Positions 1 to 41,121 of a DNA stretch of 64,000 nt are shown here, piece after piece (position 1 is the stretch's first letter; each line of letters begins with the position of its first letter). The notes below the pieces were generated by a model. It did not search any database and was not told where the DNA came from. It saw only the letters and a list, made by a program, of their open reading frames with translations. Where the stretch lies: the NCBI GenBank assembly GCA_050942925.1, contig JBMNOF010000003.1:25314-89313 (forward strand). The letters run 5' to 3'. The DNA is from Candidatus Spyradocola sp. (GTDB lineage: Bacteria > Bacillota > Clostridia > Christensenellales > UBA1750). Made by a program: the position numbers and the translations under genes.

Positions 1-557
1 GTCACGGACCCATCCGACTTTTCGTGGGCGAGGATTTCGGCTTGGCCCTCGTTGAGGTAGGCGAAGTAGACGCGGTCGTCGTTCTCGCTCATGGCGGCGA
101 ACATGGCGCTTGCGCGCGGGGCGCGGACCCCCTCGGGGACGATGGTGCGGTCGAGCGGCGTGCCATAGAGCGAGCCGTTTTCATCCAGCGCCACCAGGAC
201 CGCGCGCAGGGCCTGCCGGTTGACCATGTCCATCTCAAAGCCCGCGACATAGATGTAATTGTCGCTCGTGACATAGATGTTCTGCACGACGAAGCGATCC
301 GCGTCCGTCAAAACGGGCAGCTCCTCGTCCACGATGAGGTTGCCCTGGTCGTCCACCTTGACGATGTGGTTGACGCCGCCGACGTTTTCGATGTAGTAGA
401 CGATGCCGTTCTCATCCATGGAGAGGGCGTATTGATTTCCCGCCGTCTCCTCGTCGGTCTGCCCGACGACGGCGCTGTACAGGTAGTCCCCCAGCGTCGT
501 GATGACGCATGTCAACACGCACAAGAGGATCAGCAAGAATGCGCCAACTTTTTTCAC
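1..557 (-). CDS. membrane-anchored protein, N-terminal part only (gene runs off the left edge)
   Basis: Absent from the ORF track because it has no stop in the window. Hand translation from GTG at 557 (GAGGAGGG upstream) gives VKKVGAFLLILLCVLTCVITTLGDYLYS..., a hydrophobic anchor followed by repeated beta-strand-like motifs (IVYYIEN, NYIYVAG, RVYFAY). The frame stays open to position 3. Confidence 0.5.
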   Translation of the reverse strand, partial: MKKVGAFLLILLCVLTCVITTLGDYLYSAVVGQTDEETAGNQYALSMDENGIVYYIENVGGVNHIVKVDDQGNLIVDEELPVLTDADRFVVQNIYVTSDNYIYVAGFEMDMVNRQALRAVLVALDENGSLYGTPLDRTIVPEGVRAPRASAMFAAMSENDDRVYFAYLNEGQAEILAHEKSDGSV

Positions 558-628
558 GGCCTATTCCCTCCTCGTCTGCGCCGGCGCGCGCGGCGCTCCG
601 GGCTTTGGGATCAATTCGTTTCTGCAGG

Positions 629-1411
629 TCAAAGCGCCTCCTCGCGCAAGCGCTTTTTCCTTGCGCGCTCCTCCTTGCGGCGCTTGCGCCAGCGGCGGAA
701 GGACCGCCTCAGGAACCGAATGAGCTTTTCCAGCAACCTTCCGCGCTTCCTGTCCTCCTCCATCTTGGGCAGCAACTCGCGCCAGGCCGAATACAGCGCG
801 CTCACCGACGCATACCCGCCGGCAGCTGCGCGGTCCAAAAAGTCGATCTGTTCGTCCGTCGCGCGCCAGGGTCTGCGCAGCACGCGTTCCAGCATCGGGG
901 AAAGCGCCCCCGGGACGCCGCCTCCCTGGGCCTTTTCCTCCCCGGCCACGGGCGGGAGGATGCAGTTGATGCAGACGCGGTTGTTCTTCCGCTGCACGGC
1001 CACATTCTCCGGCTGAAGCACGGCCGAGAGCAGCCGCGCCGGCATGGACGCGCACTCCAGCGCGCCGTGCAGAAGGCTTTCGGCAAAGGTTTCGCGCTCC
1101 TCAGCCGAAAGGGAGCCGCCGCGCTGGGGAAACACGTCCTCAAACGGCTCGCCCTCGTGCAGGGCAAATACGGCGGTAAAGCGGCCGTCCTCCGTATAGA
1201 CGCGAACGAAATCCGGGCACACTTCCGAATCCATGCCGTAGAACATGGGCACCATCTGCCGGACCGCGTCCGGGCCGAAATAGATGTTGAGCAATACCTG
1301 CGGCCGTGTGGAGACCTCGATGTCCAGGGCCGAATACGCCTCGTATCCCTCCGCCTCGTGCAGGCGGCGGATGAGCTTGTACCGCCCCACTCCTGCCATG
1401 TTCGTGCGCAT
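629..1411 (-). CDS. degenerate protein-kinase-like domain protein with polybasic C-terminal helix
   Basis: AAAGGAG RBS lies 10 nt before ATG 1411, 22 nt after the fibre-like gene. GRYKLIRRLHEAEGYEAYSALD resembles a kinase N-lobe and LQPENVAV resembles LKPENILL, but the Gly-loop, VAIK Lys, HRD and DFG are all absent. The C-terminus is RRSFRRWRKRRKEERARKKRLREEAL. Confidence 0.55.
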   Translation of the reverse strand: MRTNMAGVGRYKLIRRLHEAEGYEAYSALDIEVSTRPQVLLNIYFGPDAVRQMVPMFYGMDSEVCPDFVRVYTEDGRFTAVFALHEGEPFEDVFPQRGGSLSAEERETFAESLLHGALECASMPARLLSAVLQPENVAVQRKNNRVCINCILPPVAGEEKAQGGGVPGALSPMLERVLRRPWRATDEQIDFLDRAAAGGYASVSALYSAWRELLPKMEEDRKRGRLLEKLIRFLRRSFRRWRKRRKEERARKKRLREEAL

Positions 1412-1433
1412 CTCCCGCTTACTCCTTTACTGC

Positions 1434-3209
1434 TTACTCCTCCACGATGACAAAGGCGCTGACCTTGACCTCCGGGTTATAGCGGCTCGCCGCGACGATC
1501 TCGTAGGTGCCGCGTTCATCCGGTGCCTGGTAGAGGCCGTTTTGATCGATGGACCCGCCGTTCTTGTCCTTGACGGACCAGATCACCTCGCGGTCGTCGC
1601 AGCCGTAGACCGCGGCCTTGAGGTGCAGGCGCCCGCGCGCGGGCACGCGCTGCACTTCCGGCACGATGCGGACCGAGACGCTCTCCTCTTTCTTGACCGC
1701 GCTCAAATCGCGCGTGACCTTAGAGGCATAGTAGCGCACGCGCAACACCGAGCCCTCGACATTGTCCAGCAGCCAAACGCCGACCTTAAAGGTGCCCTTT
1801 TCCGGGTAGAGGATGGCTGCGGTCTGCACCTGCGGTGCGGCGGTGGCGCGGGACTTGAACACCTCGCGGTTGCCGAAGAACTGCGCCTTCTCCCCCGCCT
1901 CCTCAAACTCCACCGCAAGGCGGATGTCCACATTTCCAAGCCCCAGATTGTGGGGGATTTCTTCGGAGATGTAGCGCGCGTTGACGCGCAGGCCGCTGGA
2001 CATGGGGATCTCCACCACGCCGGAAGAGGTGGCGTAGTCATAATCCTGCGCGCGCGGAATGCCGAACTTAAAGTGCAGGGACTGGGTCGCGTGGCTGTAG
2101 CGGGCCTGCGCCTCGGGATTCTGCCAGCTCTTGAGGGTTTCGACCTCGCTGGTGACGTTGAGGGGGGCAAGGCCTTCGCCGGAGGACTGGCCCTCGGCGC
2201 GGCGCAGGCGCTGGTCAAAGGGCAGCGCGGTCACCGACCCGATCATGGTCATCGCGCCCGCGGGCAGAAGCTGGATCTTGGCCAAATACATCGGCAGGTC
2301 GTCCGCCTGCATACGGGTGCGAAGGTTGTCCTTGACGCTGCGGAAAGCGCGCAGCTCCTCCTCGCTGCCGCAGATCTGGGCCTTGGCGGGCAGGCGCAGG
2401 GCGATCTGCTCGCTGGTGTCGCCCAGGCGCACGTTGAGCAGACCACCGTTCGGCGCGAGCTCGGCGGAAACGCCCGCCAGGTTCGCCGCGTGCAGGTTGA
2501 CCTCCAGCGTCCGGATGTGGCGCTGCTCCAGCGGGTTTTCCTTGAAGCTGTAGGAGATGTGCGCATCCCCGCCCTCTCCGGTGAAGAACTCGCTCTCCAG
2601 GGACAGGTCCAGCGACACAGGCGTGGTGACGGAGGACTTGAGCACCAGGAGCCGCGCCGAAAAATCCTCGTCCGCCAGCACGGCCTGCGGCATGGCAAAG
2701 GCCACCGTCAAGTCCTTGCTCTGGTAGAGGAGGCTCACATTCTCATAGCCCGACGCCGTCAGCAGCCGTGGGATATCCGGCTCCTCCACATCCAGGTACA
2801 GGCGGTAGCTCTCCTCGGTCTTGTTGAACTGGTTCTCCTGCGCCTCGGCCGCCACGACGCCGACGGGCTCCGCCTCGTGCTCCTCGTACTTCAGGCACAG
2901 ATAGCACTGGGGCGCGCTTCCCAGCTTGTCATATCCTTCCAGCATCTGGAGTCGCCGCACCACGGGCGCGTCGACCACGATCTCCCGGCCCAGGTAGTCC
3001 AGCGCCAGGCCGCTTTCCACAAGGAGGGTATAGTCGTCCGCCTGCGTAACCCCCAGGCCGCACACGACCCCTGCGCCGAGAACCGCGCGGTTGATCAGGC
3101 GGCGCTTGTTGTTCATATAGGTTTGTTCCAGCTCAAAGTCGCGCACGGTCAGGAGTTTGCCGTAGAAGTAGCGGTTGCGCTCCAGCGGAAAAATGCTTGC
3201 GTTCTTCAA
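1434..3209 (-). CDS. eCIS/phage distal baseplate or tail-fibre-like protein with C-terminal Ig-like domain
   Basis: Its start overlaps the upstream stop by 4 nt (ATGA). The N-terminus FPLERNRYFYGKLLTVRDFELEQ is recalled from proteins following gpI-like genes in tail-like loci. The C-terminus (LHLKAAVYGCDDREVIWSVKDKNGGSIDQNGLYQAPDERGTYEIVAAS) looks like a bacterial Ig-like (Big_2-type) domain. Confidence 0.6.
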   Translation of the reverse strand: MKNASIFPLERNRYFYGKLLTVRDFELEQTYMNNKRRLINRAVLGAGVVCGLGVTQADDYTLLVESGLALDYLGREIVVDAPVVRRLQMLEGYDKLGSAPQCYLCLKYEEHEAEPVGVVAAEAQENQFNKTEESYRLYLDVEEPDIPRLLTASGYENVSLLYQSKDLTVAFAMPQAVLADEDFSARLLVLKSSVTTPVSLDLSLESEFFTGEGGDAHISYSFKENPLEQRHIRTLEVNLHAANLAGVSAELAPNGGLLNVRLGDTSEQIALRLPAKAQICGSEEELRAFRSVKDNLRTRMQADDLPMYLAKIQLLPAGAMTMIGSVTALPFDQRLRRAEGQSSGEGLAPLNVTSEVETLKSWQNPEAQARYSHATQSLHFKFGIPRAQDYDYATSSGVVEIPMSSGLRVNARYISEEIPHNLGLGNVDIRLAVEFEEAGEKAQFFGNREVFKSRATAAPQVQTAAILYPEKGTFKVGVWLLDNVEGSVLRVRYYASKVTRDLSAVKKEESVSVRIVPEVQRVPARGRLHLKAAVYGCDDREVIWSVKDKNGGSIDQNGLYQAPDERGTYEIVAASRYNPEVKVSAFVIVEE

Positions 3210-4324
3210 TTCTGTTCCCCTCCAATCACGGTGTCGTACTGAATGGCGGCCTTGCGGTCAATCGCCGCGCCGGTGTGGCCGGAGATGACGGAGTTGACGC
3301 CGAGATAGGTGTGCGTGTCCAGGTACACGCTGTCCTTGAGCGGCACGAGCTCCGCCTCCGTGTCCGCCGGGATGACCTGGGAGATCTTGTTGAGGAATTC
3401 CTTTGCCGCTTCCTGGGAGGGGAAGCAGCTCTCCGGCAGCAGGATGTGGAAGACGTTCTCCTGCGTGCCGAACAGGCGCGTATAGAGCGCGGCGTCCTTG
3501 CCGCTCTTCTGCATGGGCTCGACCTGGAAGTGCTCCACGAGGAACGGCCGGTGCCCGGTCATGCGCGCAATGCGCTTTTTGAGGCCTTCAGGCGTCTGGG
3601 CGCGCTCATAGTCTCCCACTGCGCCGCGCACGATGGACCGCAGCGTCTCGTCGCTTGCCTCGCTCTCGTTGACCCCCACCCAGGAGGCCAGGTATTGCAG
3701 CATTTCGCCGCCCTGCTTGTCAAAGTCGAGGTTCTCCTCGAAGTGGTCGATTCTCTCCTCCAGATCCTTGACCATCGCGTCAAAGATCGACAGGTATCGA
3801 AACAGGAATCCGTCCCTGTCGCTGCGGGCATAGACCGCGGGCAGGTAGTCCAGCATGTGGTCGCCGGAAAGGCGCGCGCGCACGGCCCGCAGAACGGGCG
3901 GCGGTCCGCCTGTTAGGACAATTTCGATCTTCAGGTACAAATACCTTCCCCGAAGGCCCAACAGAACGTCCCGTCCGTCTACAAACCCCGTGGTATAGAG
4001 GGGATCTGCCTGGCCCGCCTTGACGCTCGGGGAGACAAAGGGGTCCCGGAGGTACTCGCCCAGGGACATCCCCTCCTCCGGCAGGATGTCGTTGTCCGCC
4101 GCAAACGCGGCCACGCGCACCATGCCCTCGAAATCGTCTATGTCCAGCGTAAGGCGCGTCCACGCAAAGTCCCGCCTGCCCGAGTCCAGCCGGGGAAGGT
4201 AGGCGCAGCCCCGCGCAATGCCCTCGGCGCTGCGCAGGGTCAAGCCCTCGCCCTCGGGGCGGAGGTTCACGAGCAATCCGCCCGTAAAATCGCTCCTGCG
4301 GTTGATGACAAGATAGGTATCCAT
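3206..4324 (-). CDS. phage tail protein I-like baseplate protein (P2 gpI / Afp12-region equivalent)
   Basis: Carries the motif YLPAVYARSDRDGFLFRYLSIFDAMVKDLEERIDHFEENLD...MLQYLASWVG typical of P2 gpI-type tail proteins. GGGGAGGAG RBS; sits within the baseplate gene block. Confidence 0.7.
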   Translation of the reverse strand: MDTYLVINRRSDFTGGLLVNLRPEGEGLTLRSAEGIARGCAYLPRLDSGRRDFAWTRLTLDIDDFEGMVRVAAFAADNDILPEEGMSLGEYLRDPFVSPSVKAGQADPLYTTGFVDGRDVLLGLRGRYLYLKIEIVLTGGPPPVLRAVRARLSGDHMLDYLPAVYARSDRDGFLFRYLSIFDAMVKDLEERIDHFEENLDFDKQGGEMLQYLASWVGVNESEASDETLRSIVRGAVGDYERAQTPEGLKKRIARMTGHRPFLVEHFQVEPMQKSGKDAALYTRLFGTQENVFHILLPESCFPSQEAAKEFLNKISQVIPADTEAELVPLKDSVYLDTHTYLGVNSVISGHTGAAIDRKAAIQYDTVIGGEQN

Positions 4325-4335
4325 GGCTCCTCCCC

Positions 4336-6387
4336 TCAGCGGTACACCTCAAGCGCGCCGAGCTCCGGCAGCGCGTGCGGCGGCAGGACGATGTCCCCCG
4401 CCGGTGTGCGGCCCGCCCGCGCACTTTCGGCCGTCATGAGCAGTGACTTGACTCCCAACACGCCGCGGACCTGGCCGATGGCCCCCGCGATCTCCCCTTC
4501 GGTGATGCGCTCGCCCAGGCGCCAACCGGTTTCGTCGCTGGCAAAGCAGCCCTCCACGGCGCGGCGGATGCCCGCCTCCACGTCCTGCGCGCCCACGCGG
4601 GTGAGCACCGTGACGCTGATGTGAATGCGGATGTAGAGCGGCGCCACCGCCTTGACCCGCGTGCAGACGGGCCGCACCGCCTCCAGCTGCGCCTGCACCT
4701 TTTGCAGGAAATCCGCATCCGGCAGGGGCCGGGGGCCGGTGCTGTAGGGCAGCACCGCAACCGTCACGCAGCGGTCTGCGCCCAGGGGCCGGTCGGGGTC
4801 GTAGCCCGCGATGGCGCCCGCCTGCATGACGCGCAGGCCCGGTGTGCGCTTGGCAAAGGCCGCATAGTCCGCCTCCGTCACCGCGCGGGAGGGTTCCCGG
4901 AGGCGGCGCATGAGCCGCGCGCGCACCGCCTGTGCGCTCTCCCGGTCCTGCCCCTCCTGAAAGTCGCCGGCGCGCACCGTGATTTCCGTCCCGTTCACCT
5001 GCAGGTTCTTGGCCGCCGGGAAGTGCCCCTGGCCGCCCATCGTCAGCGAAAAGTCCGCCAACAGCAGCGCGTCCTGCCCGCGCGGCGCGACCTCGCCGCG
5101 CTCGTTGTCCCCGAACAGGAAGGCGCCCTGCTCGGGATCGTAGGAAAAGCAGCGGTCAAACGGGGTCAGGGCGTTGAGGTCCGGCGCGTACGTCCACTCG
5201 ACATACCGGTCCCCGCCCGGGGTGCGCGCCTTGCCCAGGATGCGGACCGCGCCCACGTCCGGGACCTGCCCATCCACGGGCAGGGGCCAGGCGAACCCGC
5301 TCTGCCCCTCTCCGTCGGACGTCAAGTGCGGCGCCATCCATTCCTCATAGAAGATTGCGCGCAGGTTCGGCTCGCCGTCCTCGGCCGGGTCAAAGGGCAG
5401 CTCCGCCTCGACGGTCTCCGCCGCATAGCGGATCTGCTCCACCGCGCGCCAGCCGTGCGCGTCCCGCGCCAGAAGGAAGCACTTTCCCTGCTTTTCCAGC
5501 ACGCCGCGCCGTGGAATGCGCGCCTGTCGGCCTTCCGCAAAGAAATCGCCGCTGCGGACCAGCGTCTTTCTCTGCGTGGCCTGGGCAAAGGCGGCGCACA
5601 CGTCCTGAATCTGCGGCTCCTCCTCGCAGCCGGGGCGCTCCTGCGAAATGCGGACCCAGGTCCGCACCCCGCGGCCCAGGGGATCTGTTTCCCCCTCCGC
5701 CGAGGCGTCCAGCGCGAGCACACCGGTCTTGGACAGGGCGCACGTGCCGTCCTGCAGGACCGGCAGCTCCGCGCCCGATCCGCCAAAGACGCGGATCTTC
5801 CGGCCGGCCGTTTCCCCCGGCGCAAAGGGATTGCGGGGGACGGGGTACTCGTCCGCCACCGTCAGGAGGAGCGAAAGCGGTCCCGGCCCGCCGCTGCGCG
5901 CAAGGCCGATCCAAAGGTCTGCCCCGCCGTGGAAGGCGCGGATCTTCATCTGGTCGCGGAGGATGAGCTCGGTGATGTCGGTGACATCCTCTCCCCGCTG
6001 CAGGAGCAGGGCCTCGACGCGGTCGCCGCCGACGCGCGCATCCTCGTCAAAGGTAAAGGTGGCCCCGCCCGGCGCGGAGATCTCGTCTCCCGCCGTGATC
6101 TGGAACTCGCCGGCCAGGTTCAGGAAGCAAACCGTGGCCCGTGCAGGCGCAATGTCCCTGCGCTCCATGCCCAGCAGCTTGAGGTACATGTTCATCGCCC
6201 GCTCCGTCGGGCAGTTCAGGTGGTATTGCTGCATTTCCTTGTACCAGCTGAAGAGCTCAAGGAGCGTGATGCCGGGGTCATGGGCGTTGTGGTCCGTCCA
6301 CTCGGGAAAGACCGTCGGAATGGACTTGACCGCCTCCTCCACGATCTCGGCAAAGGTCTGGTCGTCCAGGTTTTCGGTGCGGAGCAT
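4336..6387 (-). CDS. Baseplate_J-like baseplate wedge protein
   Basis: N-terminus DDQTFAEIVEEAVKSIPTVFPEWTDHNAHDPGITLLELFSW and later RAVTEADYAAFAKRTPGLRVMQAGAI match the gpJ/gp6-like pattern. Confidence 0.75.
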   Translation of the reverse strand: MLRTENLDDQTFAEIVEEAVKSIPTVFPEWTDHNAHDPGITLLELFSWYKEMQQYHLNCPTERAMNMYLKLLGMERRDIAPARATVCFLNLAGEFQITAGDEISAPGGATFTFDEDARVGGDRVEALLLQRGEDVTDITELILRDQMKIRAFHGGADLWIGLARSGGPGPLSLLLTVADEYPVPRNPFAPGETAGRKIRVFGGSGAELPVLQDGTCALSKTGVLALDASAEGETDPLGRGVRTWVRISQERPGCEEEPQIQDVCAAFAQATQRKTLVRSGDFFAEGRQARIPRRGVLEKQGKCFLLARDAHGWRAVEQIRYAAETVEAELPFDPAEDGEPNLRAIFYEEWMAPHLTSDGEGQSGFAWPLPVDGQVPDVGAVRILGKARTPGGDRYVEWTYAPDLNALTPFDRCFSYDPEQGAFLFGDNERGEVAPRGQDALLLADFSLTMGGQGHFPAAKNLQVNGTEITVRAGDFQEGQDRESAQAVRARLMRRLREPSRAVTEADYAAFAKRTPGLRVMQAGAIAGYDPDRPLGADRCVTVAVLPYSTGPRPLPDADFLQKVQAQLEAVRPVCTRVKAVAPLYIRIHISVTVLTRVGAQDVEAGIRRAVEGCFASDETGWRLGERITEGEIAGAIGQVRGVLGVKSLLMTAESARAGRTPAGDIVLPPHALPELGALEVYR

Positions 6388-6418
6388 GGGCTCACCTCGC
6401 TTTTCTTACCGCATTGCG

Positions 6419-18308: not shown

Positions 18309-18695
18309 TCAGGCCTGTTCGGTCAAAAAATCCAGCGGCACCTCAATGGTCTCCCCGCACTTGGGGCAGGTGATGTGATAGGCTGGAACATCCTCCATGT
18401 TGATGCGCTGGTAGAGATCCTGCAGGTAGGCGATGTCCACCGTGAACAGGTTCTCGATGACGCGGGTCGAGATGGAGGGCAGCGTTCCCAGCTTGGTCAC
18501 CACGCGCGAGAGGAGGATGATGGAAAGGTATCCGCCGTTCTGCTGCACGCGCGGGTCCTTCAGGGGCAGGATCTCGTCCGCCGCCGTGGCAAGGCGCATC
18601 ACGCCGTTGCGGTGCACGTTGCCCTCGCCATCCACGTAGCCCTTCGGAAGCGTAAATTCAAATTCGGTTTGCATTGTATCCATCCTCGTTTCCAT
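18309..18695 (-). CDS. gpE-like tail assembly chaperone with C-terminal zinc-ribbon
   Basis: Sits between tube genes. GVMRLATAADEILPLKDPRVQQNGGYLSIILLSRVVTKLGTLPSISTRVIENLFTVDIAYLQDLY resembles P2 gpE-type chaperones. C-terminus HITCPKCGETIEVP. The start may be the third ATG (18674), which has a better-spaced GAGGA. Confidence 0.5.
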   Translation of the reverse strand: METRMDTMQTEFEFTLPKGYVDGEGNVHRNGVMRLATAADEILPLKDPRVQQNGGYLSIILLSRVVTKLGTLPSISTRVIENLFTVDIAYLQDLYQRINMEDVPAYHITCPKCGETIEVPLDFLTEQA

Positions 18696-18819
18696 CTAGG
18701 ATTACAAACAGTATAGCGAATGGAAAACAGTACGGCAAGCACTTTGCGCATGCCTGCCGTACCGCACAATTTGAGTTATCGTTTCACCGGCTCAGCGAGC
18801 CGGTGCGGCGCGCGCGGCA

Positions 18820-19305
18820 TTAGACCTCAGAGGCTGTCGCGGCGTCCTCGCCGGTGGCGACGCGGGCCAGGCCCTCGTGCGCGAATTCCACGGACTCCAC
18901 CGCGACTTCCGCCGACAAGGCGTTGAAGTCGGGAATGGAGTAGCGGCACGGCCAAGCGTTGATGATCAGCCATTCCGGTCCGGGGTTGCCTGCGTCGTCG
19001 ATCAGGCGAACGGTGATGTTGCGCCGCTCGATGCCCGTGGGGCCTGCCTGCTCGCTGGCGGCCACGGTGTAGATCCAATCCAGGAACTCAAAGTCGCCAA
19101 CCAGGCCCCAGCGCAGGGTGATGTTGCCGTACTTGGTCAGGCCCGGCAGCTTGCGGGGCGTGTTGCGCAGATCGTTGCCCTCGCGGTATTCCACGACGTC
19201 CACGTTGAGGTCGAAGCCCGACACCTCGGAGAAACCGCCGCGGGTTACGCCGTCAATTTCCACTTCAAATCGGAACGTTCTATAGGGATAGCGAATTTCT
19301 GACAT
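18820..19305 (-). CDS. gp19-type tail tube protein, paralogue 1 (Afp1-like)
   Basis: MSEIRYPYRTFRFEVEIDGVTRGGFSEVSGFDLNVDVVEYREGNDLRNTPRKLPGLTKYGNITLRWGLV is the canonical T4 gp19/eCIS tube signature. Confidence 0.9.
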   Translation of the reverse strand: MSEIRYPYRTFRFEVEIDGVTRGGFSEVSGFDLNVDVVEYREGNDLRNTPRKLPGLTKYGNITLRWGLVGDFEFLDWIYTVAASEQAGPTGIERRNITVRLIDDAGNPGPEWLIINAWPCRYSIPDFNALSAEVAVESVEFAHEGLARVATGEDAATASEV

Positions 19306-19347
19306 AAGCTAAATCGTCCTTTCCGATGCGCTCTGTGGCACCTGATT

Positions 19348-21144
19348 TTACTCGCCGCCGCCGGCTTCTGCCGTGTGCTGCGTGATGCGGAAGATCACGA
19401 ACTCGGCGGGCTTGACCGGCGCAATGCCGATGTTGCAAATCAGCCGGCCGTTGTCGATGTCGTCCTGCGTCATGGTCGTGCGGCCGATCTCAACGAAGAA
19501 CGCCTCGGAAGGAGAATTGCCCGCCAGCGCGCCGGAGCGCCACATGGAGGCCAGGAACATCTCCACCGTGCGGCGGACGCGGGACCACAGCGCCTCGCTG
19601 TTGGGCTCAAAGACGACCCAGTTGGTGTTCGCACGGATCGTCTCCTCCGTGTAGATGAAGAGACGGCGCACGTTGACGTACTTCCACAGCGCGTTGGAGG
19701 AAACCGTGCGCGCACCCCAGACGCGGATGCCGCGGCCGGTGAAGGCGCGGATCAGGTTCACGCCCTGGGGATTGAGCAGATCCTGCTCTCTCTCGTTGTA
19801 GGGGGTGGACAGGCCCGTGCAGCCGCGAACGACTTCGTTGGCCGGGGCCTTGTGCACGCCGCGCTCGGTGTCGCAGCGGGCGTAAATGCCCATCACCGCG
19901 CCAGAGGGCGGCATGTAGGCGCTGCGCTTGGTCAGCGCGTCGAAGCACTCCAGCCACGGATGGTACACCGCCGCGTAGCTCGAATCAAAGATGTCGCGCT
20001 GCTCGAGCAGTTCGTCCACCTTCGTGGCGGAAAGGGGCATATCCAGCACCGCAAAGCGGGACTTGAGGTTCTCGCAGTGCGCAACCAGCGAAAGCTGCAC
20101 GTCCGCGTCCGTCACGCCCGGCACCGCCATGATGGAGACCACGGCGTTCTCCAGGAACGCCTGGATGCCCGTGCGCTTGCCGGGGCCGTTGTCCACGCCG
20201 ATGTACTCCGCCGCGGTCACGCCCGCGATGTTGCCATCGGAACCGTTGTCCAGGGAGACGAGGAGCATGCCGCCCTTGCCGCCGACGGCCGCAAAGGGAG
20301 ACACAACGCCGGCCGCCGCCGCAACGGGCGCGGGAGCGGGCTCTTCCTTGCCGTCCTTGCCCTTGACGGGCGCGGGAGCGGCGGGCTTGGCAGCGGGCGC
20401 AGCCGCGCCAACCGCAACCTTGACCAGGTCGCTCTTCTGCATGCGGGCAACGATATAGTTAGAAGCCTCTGCATTGAAGGAAACCGCGTCGTACTCTTCC
20501 GAAGCATCCTCGTACTTGACGGTGACCTTGATCTCCGCCGTGCGGATGTACTTCATCGGGCGCAGGTTCTTGTCCACAACGTCCGCCGTCACCGGGCTCT
20601 CAAAGACGATGATATTGTCCTGAGAGGACTTGATCACCGCGTAGGAAGAGGCCTTGCCGTCGAACAGCTCGACGACATCGCCCGCGTTGAAGCCATCGCA
20701 GGACTTCACCTTCAGGGCGTTGTCGGCGACCTTCTCGTAAACCTGGGTGCGGGCCTTGGAGGCGGGCTCCAGAATCACGCGGATGGCGTTGCCCCACATG
20801 CCGGGATTGGCAGCGGTAAAGGTCAGGCGGCCGGCCGAAGCGGTCGCGGGCTTGGCGTCTTCGGGCGCGACGCGCATGATGAAGGCGCGGGCACCACCGT
20901 TGAGGAAGAACTGCTCCACTGCGTAGGGCAGGAAGCGCTTATCCCCGTACTTGGCTTCCGAAAGGTAGCCGCCGTAGGTGCGCTGGTAGTCCGCAAAGCT
21001 GGTCACAAGCTGGGGCTTGCCGATGACGGGTCCCCGCATCGCCATGCCGATGAAGCCTGCCGTCGAGGTGCTGACTGCCTCCATGGGCACCGCACCGGAG
21101 TCAAATTCTTCGACGTAAACACCGGGGGAAAGATATTCTGGCAT
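19348..21144 (-). CDS. contractile tail sheath protein
   Basis: N-terminus MPEYLSPGVYVEEFDSGAVPMEAVSTSTAGFIGMA; C-terminal GVNLIRAFTGRGIRVWGARTVSSNALWKYVNVRRLF...FEPN is typical of the sheath family. 598 aa, with an internal Ala/Pro-rich insertion. Confidence 0.9.
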   Translation of the reverse strand: MPEYLSPGVYVEEFDSGAVPMEAVSTSTAGFIGMAMRGPVIGKPQLVTSFADYQRTYGGYLSEAKYGDKRFLPYAVEQFFLNGGARAFIMRVAPEDAKPATASAGRLTFTAANPGMWGNAIRVILEPASKARTQVYEKVADNALKVKSCDGFNAGDVVELFDGKASSYAVIKSSQDNIIVFESPVTADVVDKNLRPMKYIRTAEIKVTVKYEDASEEYDAVSFNAEASNYIVARMQKSDLVKVAVGAAAPAAKPAAPAPVKGKDGKEEPAPAPVAAAAGVVSPFAAVGGKGGMLLVSLDNGSDGNIAGVTAAEYIGVDNGPGKRTGIQAFLENAVVSIMAVPGVTDADVQLSLVAHCENLKSRFAVLDMPLSATKVDELLEQRDIFDSSYAAVYHPWLECFDALTKRSAYMPPSGAVMGIYARCDTERGVHKAPANEVVRGCTGLSTPYNEREQDLLNPQGVNLIRAFTGRGIRVWGARTVSSNALWKYVNVRRLFIYTEETIRANTNWVVFEPNSEALWSRVRRTVEMFLASMWRSGALAGNSPSEAFFVEIGRTTMTQDDIDNGRLICNIGIAPVKPAEFVIFRITQHTAEAGGGE

Positions 21145-21278
21145 GTTCGTTTCTGACCCGCTGCTTGCGCGTGGATCAGAGTCCTCCTCTCGCCTTGTTT
21201 TTTTGCCGCACGCCGTATTCGGGCGCGCAGCTCTATCTCTTGGGACCCTTCCGCTGTGCGGCCGAATCCCTCAAGCAT

Positions 21279-21662
21279 CTACAGTTCCAGTGCGCCAAGG
21301 CACTGCTCGATCAGCGCTCTTTGCCGGGCGAGCGCATGCTCCAGCGTCCACCGGGCGCCAAGCTCGTCCTCGTAGTAAAGCGTCTGCTTCAGGTACGCGC
21401 GCCCCGCCTCGTCCGCAACGAGACAACCGTCTCCAAGTGTGCGGTTCAAGCGGTTGCAGCGCAAGGCCATGTCCGTGGGTTCCGCCTGCGCCGGCAGGCG
21501 CGCATAGAGCGCAAACCGTCCCGCGCGGCATCGAAGCACGACTGGCACCTTGCCCCGCCGGCTTTGCGCGCAAAGGCAGAGCTCTTCCCCATGCCGTTCA
21601 AAGGGGATCTCCATCGCCTGCAGCGCGTCCTGCGCCAGCGGCAGCGGGTCTTCCCTCTCCAT
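21279..21662 (-). CDS. YbjN / type-III-secretion-chaperone-like (TY-Chap-like) small protein
   Basis: Start trimmed to ATG 21662 (GGCGAGGTG RBS). The pattern LAQDALQAMEIPFERHGEELCLCA...VPVVLRCRAGRFALYARLP...ALRCNRLNRTLGDGCLVADEAGRAYLKQTLYYED resembles YbjN/CesT-like chaperone folds. The call rests on recollection only. Confidence 0.4.
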   Translation of the reverse strand: MEREDPLPLAQDALQAMEIPFERHGEELCLCAQSRRGKVPVVLRCRAGRFALYARLPAQAEPTDMALRCNRLNRTLGDGCLVADEAGRAYLKQTLYYEDELGARWTLEHALARQRALIEQCLGALEL

Positions 21663-21993
21663 GGGTATGCACCTCGCCTTCCGAACTGTCGTCGGGGTCA
21701 TCGTCGAATTCGGGGATGCACTCGGGGACGACGGCTTCCGGATTTCCCTCCACCGGGACCCAGTCCGCTGCCGGTTCCTCCGGCAAGCGCTCGGGCCGGA
21801 CCGAATCCGCGCCCACGCTGCGCTCGAACAGGTGCAGCGCAGCGGCGTTGCCCGCGCACAGTCCCACAGCTTGTATCGCCGCTGCGGACAATCGCGCGCC
21901 CCCCCCCTTGCAGGGCGCGCAGGGACTGTCCGACCGCGCCGCGCTGCCGCGGTGCTTTCCTGCTGCGGACGCTTTCCTCCTTATTCTCCTCAA
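21598..21993 (-). CDS. possible small acidic protein; start unresolved, contains a G9 homopolymer
   Basis: This is the only coding-like frame (GC3-rich) across 21700-21900: ..FERSVGADSVRPERLPEEPAADWVPVEGNPEAVVPECIPEFDDDPDDSSEGEV. There is no good RBS at the TTG 21993 start, and it overlaps the next gene by 64 nt. Confidence 0.3.
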   Translation of the reverse strand: MRRIRRKASAAGKHRGSAARSDSPCAPCKGGGARLSAAAIQAVGLCAGNAAALHLFERSVGADSVRPERLPEEPAADWVPVEGNPEAVVPECIPEFDDDPDDSSEGEVHTHGEGRPAAAGAGRAAGDGDPL

Positions 21994-22937
21994 TTCGCTG
22001 TTTTTCCTGCTTTTGTTCCAACATTTTCTGTGATTTCCGTCTCCGGATCGGGAGATTGTGAAATGTCCGTGAACCCTTCATCGGAATCCTGGAAAAATTC
22101 TGCTTCCATTCGTGCAAAAAGGGATTCTGCTGCACGCGCATTTGCCAGCATGGACTCCAATTTGGTTAAGAAGTCCCGTTTTCTTTGCTCTTTCTTTTGC
22201 AAGAGCGCGCGTGCGCGCACAAGAGCGCGGTCCACGATGCGGATCTCTTCCGAGGATGCGTTCCACATTCTGCGCCGCTTTTCCGAAAGCGCCTCCACAA
22301 GCCCCCGATCCTCCTCCGTAAAGAGGAAGGGGAAGGTTTCGCGCAGCGTGTTCACGCCCTGCCCCTCCAGGGCCAGCGCGGACTTCTGCACCGCGGATAG
22401 CGCGCGGGTTGCGGCGGCCGTCGCGCGCAGCGTCACCGCCACGGCGGCATGTGCATCCCCGCCAAACCGAACGCGAACGCTGCTCTGGGGAACGGGTCTC
22501 TCGTCCGCCAGGCTGTCGATGCGCCTGCGCGACTCCGTGCGGGGCAAGCCCCGTCCTGCGGCACGCTCCATGCAGGCATACAGCATCATCTCGCCCTGGC
22601 CGCGGAGAACGGCGCCCGCCATGCGTCCGCTTTGGAACGCATAGGACACAAACCGGCGAAGGCCCCCCTGCTCGTCGTTTTCAACGAGTTCCCGCATGTC
22701 GGTTTTCTGCGGTTCCTTAGGCGCCTTTCCGGCCAAGATCTGTGCGCTCTGCGTGCCGACAAGGTCAAAAACGCAGGAAAATCCGTCGCTCAAGGCATAG
22801 ACAGGGTCCCGATTGGGCGCATAGTCCACGCCCGCATTCTTGCGCAGCAGCGCAAGCAATCGTTCCTCTGCACGAATATCCGGTCTTTCCGGCCCAGCCT
22901 TGTGCGCTTCCTGTCGCTTTGTGCGATAGATGCTCAT
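21990..22937 (-). CDS. hypothetical protein, first gene of the tail-like operon
   Basis: Start trimmed to ATG 22937 (GGAGGAG RBS), about 75 nt downstream of the predicted promoter. 315 aa, no TM segment and no motif I recognise. Acidic C-terminus FFQDSDEGFTDISQSPDPETE. Confidence 0.65.
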   Translation of the reverse strand: MSIYRTKRQEAHKAGPERPDIRAEERLLALLRKNAGVDYAPNRDPVYALSDGFSCVFDLVGTQSAQILAGKAPKEPQKTDMRELVENDEQGGLRRFVSYAFQSGRMAGAVLRGQGEMMLYACMERAAGRGLPRTESRRRIDSLADERPVPQSSVRVRFGGDAHAAVAVTLRATAAATRALSAVQKSALALEGQGVNTLRETFPFLFTEEDRGLVEALSEKRRRMWNASSEEIRIVDRALVRARALLQKKEQRKRDFLTKLESMLANARAAESLFARMEAEFFQDSDEGFTDISQSPDPETEITENVGTKAGKTAN

Positions 22938-23018
22938 TTTCTCCTCCTGCTGTTCTGTTCCCACCGGAGGCACGAGCAAAGCGTTCTTTTTTCTATATTA
23001 CGGCTTCAGCCCTTTTTC

Positions 23019-23048
23019 ATTATAGCACTTGGATTTTTTCGTTGTCAA
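23019..23048 (-). promoter_or_regulatory. sigma-70-type promoter of the tail-like operon (TTGACA-18-TGcTATAAT)
   Basis: The minus strand reads ggaTTGACAacgaaaaaatccaagTGcTATAATgaaaaag. It is embedded in an obviously AT-rich ~200-bp island (22985-23190) in otherwise GC-rich DNA. Confidence 0.7.
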
Positions 23049-23247
23049 TCCCTTCCTTTTTGATGAAAATCTTCACATTTATCCTGTTTTTACTGCAATT
23101 ACTTTCGAAAAATAATATTTTACCATTTTATATAGGCTGCATTTATTTTATTCCCTAAACGAATACGTAAATTTCCCTTTTTCTGTCTATGCAGACAAAC
23201 GTCCCGGGCAAAAGCCACCCGTGGACGTTTGTCAAGAGATCTCGGCA

Positions 23248-24249
23248 TCAGGGCTTTGCGCGCGAATAGCGCTGGGCAATCCGCAGCACGTCCTTGCGCA
23301 CCTGCTCGCGCAGCTCTTCGGGGGCGAGGACCTCGCAGACGCTGGCGTATTGCAGGGCGAAAAAGCGCATGTTTTCCAAGCTGGAGCGCAGATGCACCTC
23401 CATCATCTCCCCATCCTCGCAGGGGATCATCTGCGCGTAGTGGCCGAAGGCGTCGTAGACCTGTCCGGCAGCGGTCACAGGCATGCGCAACGTCACGCGC
23501 ACGGGCTCGCCGCTGTACATATAGCGGTGCTCGGCCGCATAGCGCGCCATGTCCACGCCCCCGCGAAACTCCGGAAGGTCATAGGGCGTCATGGCGCCAA
23601 GGTCGGTGACGACCAAGTCGCGCATGTGGTCCACGCGGAAGTGGCGGAGTTCCTTGGAGCCCTCGTAGCAGGCGAGCAGGTAGTACTGCCCTTGCGCACA
23701 GAGCAGCGCCAACGGGTGCGCCTGCCGGACGCGGCCGTCTGGAACCAGCTCCCCGTCCAGCCCGATGTGGCAATAGAGGAAGCGCACCTGCAAGTGCTCG
23801 TGCACCGCGCGGCTGAGACCGTCCATGCAGTCAAAGAAATCGCGGTGGTGCATCCGGTGCCACTTGTCCACGGCGTGCACGTCCTGCACGCCGCTGGAAA
23901 AGCCCGCGCGGCCCAGATCCGTCAGCTTGCCGATGAGCTCGCGCGCCTCCTGCGAGGGAATGTACCGGCTGAGCAGCACGCTGTCGATGAGCACGCGCAG
24001 CTCCATGTCGGAGAAGAGCGGCTCCAGGTACGCGCCCTTTCCGCCCGGGCCGGTGCGAATGGGATAGCGCATCTCCCGCAGGAGGGAGAGATTCCGGGAG
24101 ATGGCATTTCGCCCCGCCTCCATGCCGAAGTCCTTCTCGATGTACTCCTCCATCTGCGCAATCGTCAGGGGGCGCTCACTGGACGAATGGGCCCGGAGCA
24201 CCTTGAGGATGCACAGCGCAAGACCTTTCTTTCCACTCAATGTCGTCAT
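23248..24249 (-). CDS. WYL-domain transcriptional regulator (HTH-WYL-WCX architecture)
   Basis: N-terminal wHTH-like KKGLALCILKVLRAHSSSERPLTIAQMEEYIEKDFG. WYL core PLALLCAQGQYYLLACYEGSKELRHFRVDHMRDLVV. Confidence 0.8.
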   Translation of the reverse strand: MTTLSGKKGLALCILKVLRAHSSSERPLTIAQMEEYIEKDFGMEAGRNAISRNLSLLREMRYPIRTGPGGKGAYLEPLFSDMELRVLIDSVLLSRYIPSQEARELIGKLTDLGRAGFSSGVQDVHAVDKWHRMHHRDFFDCMDGLSRAVHEHLQVRFLYCHIGLDGELVPDGRVRQAHPLALLCAQGQYYLLACYEGSKELRHFRVDHMRDLVVTDLGAMTPYDLPEFRGGVDMARYAAEHRYMYSGEPVRVTLRMPVTAAGQVYDAFGHYAQMIPCEDGEMMEVHLRSSLENMRFFALQYASVCEVLAPEELREQVRKDVLRIAQRYSRAKP

Positions 24250-40982: not shown

Positions 40983-41052
40983 CCTTCAGAAAATCGCAAG
41001 AAATTCCTCACAAAACCACAAGGCTTTGGAAAGAAAGCGCGAAACCCTTTTT

Positions 41053-41098
41053 CGCCCCGTTCGACTACAATGGCAATGTCGAACGGGGCGGTTTTCGT
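41053..41098 (+). terminator. 13-bp-stem hairpin with T-tract between vanS and vanW
   Basis: CGCCCCGTTCGACtacaatggcaatGTCGAACGGGGCGgttttcgt. The loop contains TACAAT, so the hairpin may overlap the vanW-operon promoter. Confidence 0.55.
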
Positions 41099-41121
41099 AT
41101 GCGCCCCGGGAAAGGAGCACC

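Follow-up and report, generated by a model that had tools for sequence, protein, structure and literature searches.

The 64,000-nucleotide stretch of DNA analyzed here (the window) is chromosomal DNA of an uncultured high-GC gut Clostridia bacterium related to Anaerotruncus. On its minus strand, about 20 co-directional genes run unbroken from an ATG at 22937 to past position 1 (Table 1), and adjacent genes share 4-nt start/stop overlaps at 17578-17581, 10585-10588, 9367-9370 and 3206-3209. This ORF layout agrees with an earlier note on this DNA, which had counted at least 19 co-directional genes with 4-nt overlaps from the same ATG. All operon genes are intact and tightly coupled, and the peptides quoted in the earlier note, MPEYLSPGVYVEE, YRTFRFEVEIDG and RGERVMRPDFG, were all found in the translations. 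Anaerotruncus colihominis has a syntenic operon, whose sheath is 71% identical.

Table 1. Features of the operon and of its upstream region in the window
Position	Strand	Feature	Basis
23248..24249	-	WYL/WCX-domain transcription regulator	Pfam WYL 5e-9, WCX 3e-8
23019..23048	-	predicted sigma-70 promoter, consensus	TTGACA, 18-nt spacer with TG, TATAAT; 12/12 match
21990..22937	-	first operon gene, 315 aa, function unassigned	helical, acidic C-terminus
21279..21701	-	140-aa protein	position is that of the YbjN-family (chaperone-like) protein in A. colihominis
19348..21144	-	contractile sheath (Cis2/Afp2-like), 598 aa	Pfam Phage_sheath_1 8e-23, Phage_sheath_1C 1e-17
18820..19305	-	main inner tube protein (gp19/Cis1-type)	Phage_T4_gp19 1e-40
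18727..18765	-	hairpin, 16-bp stem, in gap after sheath and tube genes	terminator-like scan
18309..18695	-	tail-assembly-chaperone-like protein, 128 aa	phrog_508, E 1.8e-6
18130..18276	-	DUF6760 small protein, 48 aa	translation; homologue annotated in A. colihominis and H. borinquense
17578..18114	-	tube paralogue 2 (Cis1b/Cis5-like)	Phage_T4_gp19 4e-26
17150..17581	-	tube paralogue 3	Phage_T4_gp19 4e-23
12490..17088	-	1532-aa protein in tape-measure position	gene position between tubes and initiator
13247..15865	-	tandem array in candidate ruler gene	393-bp (131-aa) unit; 6.7 copies, a number that may reflect assembly
11722..12435	-	tube initiator, LysM-like C-terminus (Afp7/Cis7)	CIS_tube 2e-34
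10585..11679	-	gp27/gpD-like hub, N-terminal half of split Afp8/VgrG	NCBIfam VgrG_rel 9e-14
9821..10588	-	gp5/gpV-like spike, C-terminal half of split Afp8	Phage_base_V 6e-22
9367..9786	-	gp25-like sheath initiator (Cis9)	GPW_gp25 8e-25
6419..9370	-	baseplate wedge, Afp11/Cis11 copy a, 983 aa	Baseplate_J 1e-7
4336..6387	-	baseplate wedge, Afp11/Cis11 copy b, 683 aa	Baseplate_J 4e-19
3206..4324	-	Tail_P2_I/Cis12-like baseplate adaptor, 372 aa	NCBIfam CIS12_fam 9e-27, TIGR02242 5e-20
1434..3209	-	Cis13-like fibre or peripheral baseplate protein, 591 aa	NCBIfam CIS13_fam 7e-27, residues 9-146
629..1411	-	predicted pseudokinase, 260 aa, long basic C-terminal helix	AF2 model and Foldseek
1..557	-	multi-pass receptor, 888 aa, start only in window, off left edge	full gene on contig L001

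The promoter lies 5' of the first operon gene, and an AGGAGG Shine-Dalgarno sequence was read 6 nt ahead of ATG 22937. Transcription of the operon probably starts at this promoter (23048-23019), and the hairpin is a possible attenuator that could set sheath/tube stoichiometry. The WYL/WCX regulator is treated as a neighbouring gene; it lies directly upstream of the operon and is co-directional with it, and it was absent from the equivalent position in A. colihominis. WYL regulators are often linked to stress responses. The 41 kb to the right hold this regulator, transporters, metabolic genes, a van-type cluster and tRNAs, in line with the regulator and housekeeping genes noted earlier for the 5' flank; no tRNA was found adjoining the operon.

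The sheath was 47-54% identical to CIS sheaths (E 1e-90 to 1e-121), whereas its best match among deposited phages was only 37% identical (E 2e-52). The main tube protein matched the tCIS, AlgoCIS and PVC tubes in the PDB. A sheath, a tube and two tube paralogues had been proposed before, and Pfam supports one sheath and three Phage_T4_gp19 tubes. The proposed gpE-like chaperone is the 128-aa protein, which PHROGs also calls a tail assembly chaperone. It carries a C-terminal CxxC...CxxC zinc ribbon and is very highly conserved, with identities of 82% in A. colihominis, 66% in Paenibacillus and 58% in an archaeon (tblastn). The DUF6760 ORF behind it had been overlooked. For the 315-aa product of the first gene, no Pfam, NCBIfam, PHROG or PDB match was found; the 357-aa product of the A. 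colihominis gene at the equivalent position is a weak homologue (27% identity). The gap at 21701-21990, searched for a small acidic ORF, held only an overlapping ORF with ambiguous codon statistics. The 140-aa protein, proposed before to be chaperone-like, showed a weak pairwise match to the YbjN-family protein of A. colihominis (E 0.002), and its AF2 model had a pLDDT of 48.

The giant repeat protein of the earlier note is the 1532-aa protein. Conservation with a 1286-aa A. colihominis protein covers ~100 aa at the N-terminus and ~175 aa at the C-terminus, and the middle part varies; the family is rare, spans 622-1532 aa and always has its conserved domain at the C-terminus. Copies of the array match at 86% (Tandem Repeats Finder), and each 131-aa unit contains about 18-19 collagen-like Gly-X-Y triplets (Pfam Collagen 1e-59). 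The parent contig of the short-read contig L001, described below, would end inside the array. Searches that included Pfam, NCBIfam and PHROG detected no homology to Afp14, gp29 or any known tape-measure family, and published eCIS subtyping reports lineage II to be without afp14. The 1532-aa protein is a candidate length ruler, predicted as such because of its gene position, its chaperone-like neighbour, its conserved termini and its lineage-specific repeated middle of variable length.

Pfam and NCBIfam profiles matched the series that had been read as a LysM tube-initiator, hub, spike, gp25, two Baseplate_J-like proteins and a gpI-like protein. LysM itself was matched in the window's initiator only at E 0.11; the 54%-identical A. 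colihominis orthologue matches it. An archaeal homologue of the hub carries the annotation VgrG/Pvc8 family, and both Cis11 copies found their best PDB match in Streptomyces Cis11 (9GTP; 5e-19 for copy a and 9e-16 for copy b). The Cis12-like adaptor showed a weak Pfam Tail_P2_I match (2e-3). Residues 493-574 of the Cis13-like protein matched a PHROG tail fibre (3.6e-4), and no Pfam match to an Ig fold was found in its tip, even at E≤1. This protein was 94, 80 and 78% identical to its relatives, with 83-98% in the C-terminal 40%; conservation of the tip is unusually high and exceeds that of the baseplate proteins.

The 260-aa protein had been called kinase-like. This held at the level of the fold, where the Foldseek top 50 were all kinases or pseudokinases, T7SS YukC/EssB included (AF2 model with pLDDT 69, and above 85 in the C-terminal half), but not at the level of sequence, where searches found no kinase signature and the catalytic Lys, Asp and Asp were replaced. 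The last gene, described as encoding a membrane protein, indeed encodes a multi-pass receptor according to a transmembrane scan, with two extracytoplasmic domains, a HAMP domain (5e-11) and a class III nucleotide-cyclase-like domain (PDB 2W01, 1e-6). The pseudokinase, this HAMP-cyclase receptor, a MORN protein and a further membrane protein form an envelope module that is conserved inside the operon. The order of these genes was kept in all relatives examined, and no gene homologous to the window's membrane proteins was found in the Halogeometricum loci searched (L007 and L008).

The public contig L001 is 100% identical to positions 1-11411 of the window and adds about 8.5 kb of the operon on its left. 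It carries the 888-aa HAMP receptor, the MORN protein and an OEP-like secreted protein; it also encodes a cap protein (Pvc16_N/DUF4255, 7e-23), a CarboxypepD_reg-like protein, a tip protein (DUF4280/PAAR-like, 2e-25) and a membrane protein, and it ends in the start of an ATPase gene (186-aa N-terminus, WHD 9e-11). In relatives L003, L010, L023 and L024 the ATPase gene is likewise the next gene and encodes a full-length WHD+AAA protein of 670-680 aa; from these relatives a full-length WHD-AAA+ ATPase is predicted for the window's own genome. It had been suggested that the ATPase, DUF4255 cap and PAAR tip might be truly absent, which would make the locus an atypical, possibly undescribed CIS lineage. 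All three do lie outside the window, but they are found just to the left on the identical contig and in the same order in the four relatives, and we give an atypical lineage of this kind practically no credence. That reading is refuted unless L001 is a chimeric assembly, which is unlikely because of the 11,411 identical bases and the conserved synteny.

The order of sheath, tube, chaperone, large protein, hub, V, W, J, I and fibre resembles P2-like tails, and IMG/VR labels related loci viral, as would suit a prophage tail module or an R-type tailocin recently derived from one. Judged by synteny, however, the IMG/VR relatives are CIS loci too, and the cap (Pvc16_N), the ATPase (Afp15-type WHD-AAA) and the tube initiator (CIS_tube) of the operon speak against a phage. 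Neither the 41 kb to the right nor the about 8.5 kb to the left yielded genes for a head, packaging, integration or lysis; L001 continues the operon, and in the relatives the ATPase gene is its last, beyond which such genes, among them capsid, portal and terminase genes, were likewise not found. With the low similarity to phage sheaths, these data make a prophage or tailocin very improbable. The flanks, the left extension, the relatives and the sheath similarity all agree with the stand-alone CIS operon proposed earlier.

A decaying, non-functional remnant would be consistent with the literature, in which no expression or particle reports were found for this organism or for Anaerotruncus, and with fast evolution of some accessory genes, with identities to more distant relatives of 41-59% for p249, the OEP-like protein and the pseudokinase. 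Against decay stand the intact, overlapping genes, the consensus promoter with its Shine-Dalgarno sequence and the conservation among relatives: core proteins are 57-96% identical, order and content are kept down to 71% sheath identity, and the A. colihominis operon has all accessory genes but the OEP-like one. We regard decay as very improbable. The locus is very probably a complete CIS operon of at least ~31.5 kb and of lineage II, subtype IIa, of which the window has roughly the first 23 kb.

Published eCIS subtyping defines subtype IIa by two afp11 copies, a split afp8, PAAR and divergent afp12/13, and all of these are found at the locus. Because its cap, tip and ATPase are encoded directly outside the window, the system belongs, as an uncharacterised member, to a type that is already catalogued and is not a new kind. 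A 2026 receptor-binding-domain catalogue (PMC12923769), which is purely computational and covers fibres only, lists eBAP3-fibre eCIS loci of Firmicutes_A in An92, Anaerotruncus, Flavonifractor, Faecalibacterium and other genera. These loci share with the window the host group and the pairing of a Tail_P2_I adaptor with a fibre of about 590 aa behind it; the An92 example is a 584-aa fibre of class C3b/BIG. No description of the ruler or the envelope module was found in the catalogue text read.

The nearest solved sheath is that of the clade-IIa Halogeometricum borinquense CIS, the 'archaeal T6SS' (PDB 9EZM, 4e-121; PMC11566945), with 53% identity over the C-terminal half. H. borinquense shares the split hub/spike, two Cis11 copies, Cis12 and Cis13 homologues, the 128-aa chaperone-like protein (58% identical), DUF6760, the DUF4255 cap and the AAA ATPase, and its nearest relatives were reported to be from Bacillota (PMC11566945). 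Unlike the window, it has a true PAAR gene adjoining the spike and no large protein before the LysM gene; no tape measure but a putative membrane anchor, Hbor_38620, was reported (PMC11566945). About 8.7 kb with nine hypothetical genes interrupt its cluster (PMC11566945), and RefSeq annotates DUF4157 genes in this interspacing region. In the window's operon, in contrast, cap, tip and ATPase stand at the far 3' end, behind the envelope-protein module.

The second-best sheath match was the cytoplasmic CIS of Streptomyces coelicolor, subtype IId (PDB 8BKY, 7e-106; also 8BL4 and 9GTP; PMC10066040, PMC12237407), in which the membrane protein CisA is encoded after the baseplate genes and is required for firing. 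A Streptomyces plasmid locus shares with the operon the pair of cap and CarboxypepD_reg-like protein. In subtype IId, afp11 is single, afp8 is unsplit, and genes for a fibre and a tape measure are missing, whereas in the window Cis11 occurs twice, the spike is split, and a Cis13-type protein and the ruler candidate are present; the S. clavuligerus plasmid locus departs from the IId form in having two baseplate-J-type genes. Afp and PVC (subtype Ia) share the core of sheath, gp19 tubes, LysM initiator, spike, gp25 and Afp11, as well as the Afp15 ATPase and Afp16 cap, but lie considerably further away (sheath E about 1e-50 to 1e-54). They have a single Afp11 and an unsplit Afp8 but three paralogous sheaths; their fibres are adenovirus-like and are followed by a recognisable Afp14 tape measure, and their 3' end holds toxin cargo genes.

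By homology, the genes encode a phage-tail-like particle, in which the single-protein sheath would wrap a gp19-type tube nucleated by the LysM tube initiator and the tube paralogues. Inside the tube, the 1532-aa protein may act as the length ruler with the 128-aa chaperone-like and DUF6760 proteins, and its collagen-like repeats would suit a trimer. The baseplate would consist of gp25, the two Cis11 (Baseplate_J) paralogues and the Cis12/Tail_P2_I adaptor bearing the Cis13-type peripheral protein, with the gp27-like hub and the gp5-like spike, tipped by the DUF4280/PAAR-like protein, seated in it. The Pvc16_N/DUF4255 cap would terminate the particle, the WHD-AAA+ ATPase would help assembly or loading, and contraction of the sheath would drive spike and tube through a membrane.

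The earlier note had called the system extracellular; this is not established, since its nearest solved relatives are not Afp/PVC but the T6SS-like CIS of a haloarchaeon and the cytoplasmic CIS of Streptomyces, both of which work from inside the producing cell. A classical extracellular CIS would assemble in the cytoplasm, leave by lysis of a subpopulation, bind its target by the Cis13-type fibre and inject cargo, with the membrane proteins as regulators or unrelated passengers. The fibre-type protein on its Tail_P2_I adaptor, a class catalogued as eCIS fibres with Anaerotruncus loci listed, favours this, as do the ruler-like protein and cap, which imply discrete particles of fixed length, and the strong stand-alone promoter adjoining the WYL regulator. 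However, no holin or endolysin was recognised in or beside the operon of this thick-walled monoderm host, and no gene for a toxin or another cargo could be recognised. The fibre tip ranks with the best-conserved portions of the operon, which is not typical of receptor-binding tips, the closest relatives that have been studied are associated with the cell, and the envelope genes keep their order. We judge an extracellular particle a serious possibility, somewhat short of an even chance.

The particle may instead stay coupled to the producer's envelope through the pseudokinase, the HAMP-cyclase receptor, the MORN protein and the further membrane protein, a reading to which we give roughly even odds. 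We lean to it because four envelope proteins and the pseudokinase are conserved inside the operon, because no lysis genes were seen in or near it, because conservation is higher in the fibre tip than in the baseplate proteins and because both nearest studied systems act from inside the cell with membrane adaptors. Two features of the locus, its fibre-type Cis13 protein and its candidate ruler, speak against such coupling, and the 2026 catalogue treats such Firmicutes loci as extracellular, with target-binding fibres.

The T6SS offers a functional analogy only. T6SSs are controlled by threonine phosphorylation or membrane sensing, and in the window, too, genes for a kinase-fold protein and for envelope sensors accompany those of the contractile machine. 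Unlike in the T6SS, the kinase fold lacks catalytic residues and the receptor has a cyclase-like domain, and homology to PpkA, Fha or Tag proteins is absent. The analogy suggests that assembly or firing of this CIS may be signal-gated.

The minus strand from position 22937 to position 1 carries an unbroken array of genes with tiny gaps and four 4-nt start/stop overlaps, as seen from the ORF layout. The earlier note had described an uninterrupted co-directional contractile injection system (CIS) operon here; this operon is real, and almost every gene label was borne out by profile searches (see table). The matches to CIS12_fam and CIS13_fam were partial, and both lay under the NCBIfam cut-offs. 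The 128-aa protein after the first tube matched a PHROG tail assembly chaperone, and directly after it lies a 48-aa DUF6760 ORF that had been overlooked. The 315-aa product of the first gene had no match in Pfam, NCBIfam, PHROG or PDB sequence searches. The 140-aa protein labelled as chaperone-like had no match in Pfam, NCBIfam or PHROG, and its single-sequence AF2 model was poor. The Ig domain proposed for the fibre tip had no Pfam match even at E<=1. The 290-bp gap that separates the first gene from the 140-aa gene, where a small acidic ORF had been noted, contains an overlapping ORF of 131 aa, acidic at its tail and with coding-like GC3; the equivalent 326-bp gap in Anaerotruncus colihominis has no called gene.

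Features of the operon, of its left extension on the identical contig L001, and of the neighbouring sequence (window positions unless stated)
Feature	Position	Strand	Evidence or description
Promoter	23048-23019	-	Perfect TTGACA-18-TATAAT with TG extension
Gap with 131-aa ORF	21701-21990	-	First gene to 140-aa gene
Sheath	19348-21144	-	Phage_sheath_1 and Phage_sheath_1C profiles
Three gp19-type tubes	18820-19305, 17578-18114, 17150-17581	-	Profile matches
Hairpin	18727-18765	-	16-bp stem
DUF6760 ORF, 48 aa	18130-18276	-	Directly after 128-aa chaperone-like protein
Giant protein, 1532 aa	12490-17088	-	Candidate length ruler
Repeat array in giant gene	13247-15865	-	393-bp unit
CIS_tube initiator, LysM-like tail	11722-12435	-	Profile match; LysM shown via A. 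colihominis orthologue
gp27/gpD-like hub	10585-11679	-	Profile search
gp5/V-like spike	9821-10588	-	Profile search
gp25	9367-9786	-	Profile search
Baseplate_J (Afp11/Cis11) copies, 983 aa and 683 aa	6419-9370 and 4336-6387	-	Profile matches
Tail_P2_I/CIS12-like protein	3206-4324	-	Profile match
Cis13-like protein, 591 aa	1434-3209	-	N-terminus matches NCBIfam CIS13_fam
260-aa protein (p260)	629-1411	-	Putative pseudokinase
888-aa membrane protein	L001 10855-13521 (first in extension; start at window 557)		4 TM segments, HAMP, class III nucleotide cyclase-related C-terminal domain
MORN-repeat protein	L001 extension, second		Single-pass
Secreted coiled-coil protein	L001 extension, third		Weak OEP match
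Pvc16_N (DUF4255) cap	L001 extension, fourth		7e-23
CarboxypepD_reg-like protein	L001 extension, fifth (with the cap, L001 16504-17834)		
DUF4280/PAAR-motif protein	L001 extension, sixth		2e-25
Further membrane protein	L001 extension, seventh		
ATPase start	L001 extension, last		First 186 residues, with winged-helix domain (WHD) preceding AAA module
Inverted repeat	23194-23233	-	Perfect, 11 bp
Histidine kinase	39687-40982	+	vanG/vanC-type set
D-Ala-D-Ala ligase family protein	41859-43022	+	vanG/vanC-type set
VanY-type carboxypeptidase	43019-43801	+	vanG/vanC-type set
VanT-like fusion	43770-45920	+	vanG/vanC-type set; membrane acyltransferase domain and alanine/serine racemase

The AAA+ ATPase, the DUF4255 cap and the PAAR tip were not visible in the window, and true absence had been considered. 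The p260 protein is also encoded on a public short-read contig, L001, which matches window 1-11411 at 100% identity and extends the sequence leftwards by about 8.5 kb. All three genes lie on this contig, the ATPase as its N-terminus; they had seemed absent because the window edge cut the operon, and a lineage without cap, PAAR and ATPase was ruled out by the gene content of L001. The full length of the ATPase was taken from four relatives (the Clostridia MAG L003 and metagenomic contigs L010, L023, and L024), which encode a complete WHD+AAA protein of 670-680 aa at the same position. In L003, a MAG 60-79% identical, the CIS ATPase is followed by genes for an 839-aa alanine-racemase fusion, a solute-binding-like protein, an MFS fusion and a second WHD-AAA paralogue (L003 5557-13859), and a strand switch follows the ATPase in A. 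colihominis. Capsid, portal and terminase genes were not found past the ATPase in either.

The content of the operon was compared with the core set of CIS and extracellular CIS (eCIS) of Chen et al. (2019). The window encodes the sheath, gp19/Hcp-type tube, Afp7-type LysM initiator, Afp8 spike, gp25 and Afp11 Baseplate_J; the Afp16-type cap lies outside it on L001, and the Afp15-type AAA+ ATPase is represented by the WHD N-terminus on L001 and by the full proteins of the four relatives. In the same classification, subtype IIa has two afp11 genes, an afp8 split into gp27-like and gp5-like genes, a PAAR gene and divergent afp12/afp13, and afp14 was reported to be generally absent from lineage II. 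All four structural features of subtype IIa were found in the operon, the PAAR-type tip being the DUF4280/PAAR_motif protein on L001. As judged from sequence, the CIS operon is intact and complete, is of the subtype-IIa type and comes from a relative of Anaerotruncus; it belongs to a group that has been catalogued already. The suggestion of an atypical, undescribed CIS lineage was not upheld: the operon fits the published subtype, and its group appears in a 2026 fibre catalogue (PMC12923769).

The closest named sheaths were those of A. colihominis (71% identity), whose operon has the same gene order and the same accessory genes; only the OEP-like protein was found to have no homologue in that operon. 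In A. colihominis DSM 17241 an additional gene (L004 8481-9749) separates the membrane protein gene from the ATPase gene. Its 422-aa product contains an ABC substrate-binding-like domain, reminiscent of the solute-binding-like outer domain of CisA in Streptomyces, and the window genome has no counterpart at this position. Contig L023, whose p260 homologue is about 53% identical, has a GNAT acetyltransferase gene between the spike and gp25 (L023 1154-1573) that is absent from the window.

Among solved structures, the best match to the window sheath was that of the Halogeometricum borinquense CIS, which was placed in clade IIa by its authors, with Bacillota as its nearest relatives (PMC11566945). 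The archaeal plasmid shares with the window the chaperone-like protein (58% identity), DUF6760, both Cis11 proteins, Cis12 and the N-terminal domain of Cis13; no homologue of the window membrane proteins was found in the two haloarchaeal loci (L007 and L008). The Streptomyces Cis11 was the best solved-structure match for both window Cis11 copies. The Streptomyces cytoplasmic CIS (IId) has a single afp11, an unsplit afp8, no fibre gene and a CisA adaptor, and this type was ruled out by the two afp11 copies, the split afp8 and the Cis13-like gene of the window. A canonical T6SS, with its two-protein sheath (TssB/C), its TssJLM membrane complex and neither cap nor Afp11, was ruled out by the single sheath protein, Baseplate_J and Pvc16_N.

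A Paenibacillus locus (L009) has the same core, but its ATPase and cap lie upstream of the sheath. In the window lineage, the position of cap, tip and ATPase behind the fibre and envelope block represents a variation in gene order rather than a new type. A plasmid locus of Streptomyces clavuligerus has the same pair of a cap gene and, after it, a CarboxypepD_reg-like gene (pair at L011 18696-19990) as L001, and in Paenibacillus the corresponding slot after the DUF4255 cap is taken by an uncharacterised 291-aa ORF (cap and ORF at L009 18497-19956). These data suggest that the cap-following protein is an unnamed conserved component of lineage II; in the window lineage its gene is among the fastest-evolving of the operon (45-76% identity).

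The earlier note had read the locus as stand-alone and not as the tail module of a prophage, and the flanks, gene content and sheath similarity agreed with this. To the right of the operon lie genes for a WYL/WCX regulator, QueT, a CAP-domain protein, a C26 peptidase, oxidoreductases and MatE, together with a dCTP deaminase, a GH127 enzyme, ABC transporters, a van-type cluster, SufBD and others. The operon is not bordered by a tRNA, and no capsid, portal, terminase or integrase gene was found in the locus (window flank, L001 extension, and relatives past the ATPase). CIS sheaths encoded on haloarchaeal, Paenibacillus and Streptomyces plasmids shared 47-54% identity with the window sheath. In the PDB ranking, CIS structures (4e-121 to 1e-33) came before pyocin (2e-17) and T4 gp18 (2e-7); the best deposited phage sheath, that of Bacillus phage BCD7, was 37% identical, and phage matches of the large Cis11 protein were marginal only. 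A prophage or tailocin was ruled out by the flanks, the core gene content and this weak phage similarity. IMG/VR contigs with 43-58% identical sheaths were CIS loci by synteny: sheath, tube, LysM initiator and hub were present on all nine 'viral' contigs (L012-L020), and cap, spike, gp25 and Cis11 on most, as far as each contig reaches. By gene content, these nine look like CIS loci labelled as viruses.

The operon promoter was read in the sequence as a perfect consensus, and AGGAGG lies 6 nt before the ATG at 22937. The WYL/WCX regulator gene is directly upstream on the same strand, but a link to the operon is only a guess because A. colihominis does not have it at that position. Just past the stop codon of the regulator gene, and some 150 bp before the promoter is reached, is a perfect inverted repeat, GACAAACGTCC ... 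GGACGTTTGTC, which could be the terminator of the WYL gene or an operator. The hairpin downstream of the first tube gene, in the intergenic gap that follows sheath and tube, is a possible attenuator, which would lower read-through into the less abundant components and set the highly expressed sheath and tube genes apart. Farther to the right, the vanG/vanC-type gene set (39687-45920, plus strand) has a raised GC content of 0.68-0.70.

In gene order the giant protein follows the tubes and the chaperone and precedes the initiator and the hub, which is the tape-measure position of phage tails and P2-like systems. This position, its large size and its conserved C-terminus are those of a tape-measure gene. 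The gene contains 6.7 tandem copies of its repeat unit (86% matches), a copy number that may be assembly-sensitive: the parent contig of short-read L001 would end inside the array. In each unit, 18-19 Gly-X-Y triplets precede two further stretches, a short beta-rich one and a helical one. In comparison with the 1286-aa A. colihominis protein, in which the middle is of low complexity and collagen-free, conservation was confined to roughly the first 100 and the last 175 residues. When 1.8 billion proteins were searched exhaustively with the last 192 residues, no more than 16 representative clusters matched; the homologues were 622 to 1327 aa long, and the domain was C-terminal in every case. The collagen repeats are laid out differently in one homologue, and the tandem repeats of another, which comes from a low-GC organism, are helical and non-collagen; closer relatives gave Collagen matches too, but their ends are lost at contig ends. 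Conserved ends around a freely varying repeated middle are as expected of a ruler.

No homology to known tape-measure families (Afp14, gp29, and phage TMP in Pfam/PHROG) was found other than collagen-driven matches, and among solved structures the protein matched only collagens and one collagen-like fibril protein. A literature search found no report of a collagen-like tape measure. The giant protein was also considered as a tail fibre, which was ruled out: the PHROG fibre matches were due to the Gly-X-Y repeats alone, and the A. colihominis orthologue has no collagen. From its position and pattern of conservation, the giant protein is probably a length ruler. A collagen triple helix would suit a trimeric protein in the tube lumen. 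The middle of such a ruler would evolve by swapping and expanding tandem repeats, and the collagen-like segments of this operon would fit a trimer inside the tube. If this is true, lineage II, currently reported without a tape measure, would have one.

The 'kinase-like' description of p260 held at the level of fold only, as sequence searches gave no kinase match. In an AlphaFold model built from 18 homologues the C-terminal half was confident and the N-lobe was poorly modelled. The best 50 Foldseek matches were all kinases or pseudokinases, including MLKL, KSR1 and the T7SS membrane pseudokinase YukC/EssB, with probability up to 1.0 but E of 0.02-0.2 and TM of 0.3-0.4. By manual alignment, the beta-3 Lys, HRD Asp and DFG Asp are replaced by Asn42, Val and Asn149, and both Asn residues are invariant in the family alignment. 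We call p260 a putative pseudokinase because of these fold matches and the replaced catalytic residues. It forms a conserved block with four envelope proteins that have large extracytoplasmic domains, in the same order in every relative examined. In the 888-aa receptor, the extracytoplasmic parts were 48% identical to those of a more distant relative, whereas the HAMP-cyclase part was 68-72% identical, and this faster divergence is as expected for a sensor. The cyclase domain keeps both metal-binding Asp residues, and its transition-state Asn is replaced by Ser.

Release as a free extracellular particle would agree with the fibre-type protein on a Tail_P2_I adaptor and with the presence of a candidate ruler and a cap, and such loci are treated as eCIS in the 2026 fibre catalogue. 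In favour of a cell-associated device, both of the nearest studied systems operate from within the producing cell: the H. borinquense CIS is bound perpendicular to the membrane (PMC11566945), and the Streptomyces CIS needs the membrane protein CisA to fire (PMC12237407). The ordered retention of the pseudokinase and envelope block also argues against release, and no holin or endolysin was recognised in the operon, its left extension or the right flank. Furthermore, the fibre was among the best conserved proteins of the operon. Its identity to three relatives was 94, 80, and 78%, while that of the Cis11 proteins was 85% and 57-60% (measurable in two of the three), and the C-terminal 40% of the fibre was its best conserved part. 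Typical receptor-binding fibres have hypervariable tips, the opposite of what is seen here.

On this evidence, predicted from gene content and conservation, we give envelope-coupled use an even chance, regard release as free particles as a real possibility short of that, and leave the rest to neither. In envelope-coupled use, the pseudokinase, the HAMP-cyclase receptor, the MORN protein and the further membrane protein would recruit or trigger the CIS at the membrane, and this module would correspond to CisA or to the sensing pathways of the T6SS. The combined picture, in which monoderm gut Clostridia have a signal-gated, envelope-coupled CIS whose length is set by a new lineage-II ruler, is speculative and, taken whole, unlikely.

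A 2021 survey (PMC8213781) scored eCIS in 0/3 Anaerotruncus genomes (supplement file 9) and argued that eCIS are depleted from mammalian (gut) microbiomes, and a 2025 metagenome survey found human-gut CIS almost only in Bacteroidota. Contrary to the 2021 score, the full operon is present in A. colihominis (L004/L006), which suggests a detection gap in that survey for loci with cap and ATPase parted from the core by non-core genes. The 2026 catalogue lists loci of Anaerotruncus, An92, Flavonifractor, Faecalibacterium and other Firmicutes_A, with eBAP3-type fibres downstream of the Tail_P2_I adaptor, including a 584-aa example (PMC12923769). The family is therefore already catalogued computationally; a literature search on contractile injection, covering main texts, found no experimental work on the Anaerotruncus CIS, and no experimental study of Bacillota subtype-IIa systems was found.

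The interest of the operon lies in its candidate ruler with swappable repeats, its conserved sensing/anchoring module and its cultured relative. Since the same operon is carried by A. colihominis DSM 17241, a commensal of the human gut that is in culture and has a closed genome, the mode of action, the ruler and the sensing module are testable. The natural ruler variants, of 622-1532 aa and with different repeat types (among them one of 1161 aa whose layout differs), bear on what sets particle length in lineage II, and the operon opens the questions of what role the conserved sensing module has and whether a thick-walled monoderm uses a CIS outside or inside the cell.
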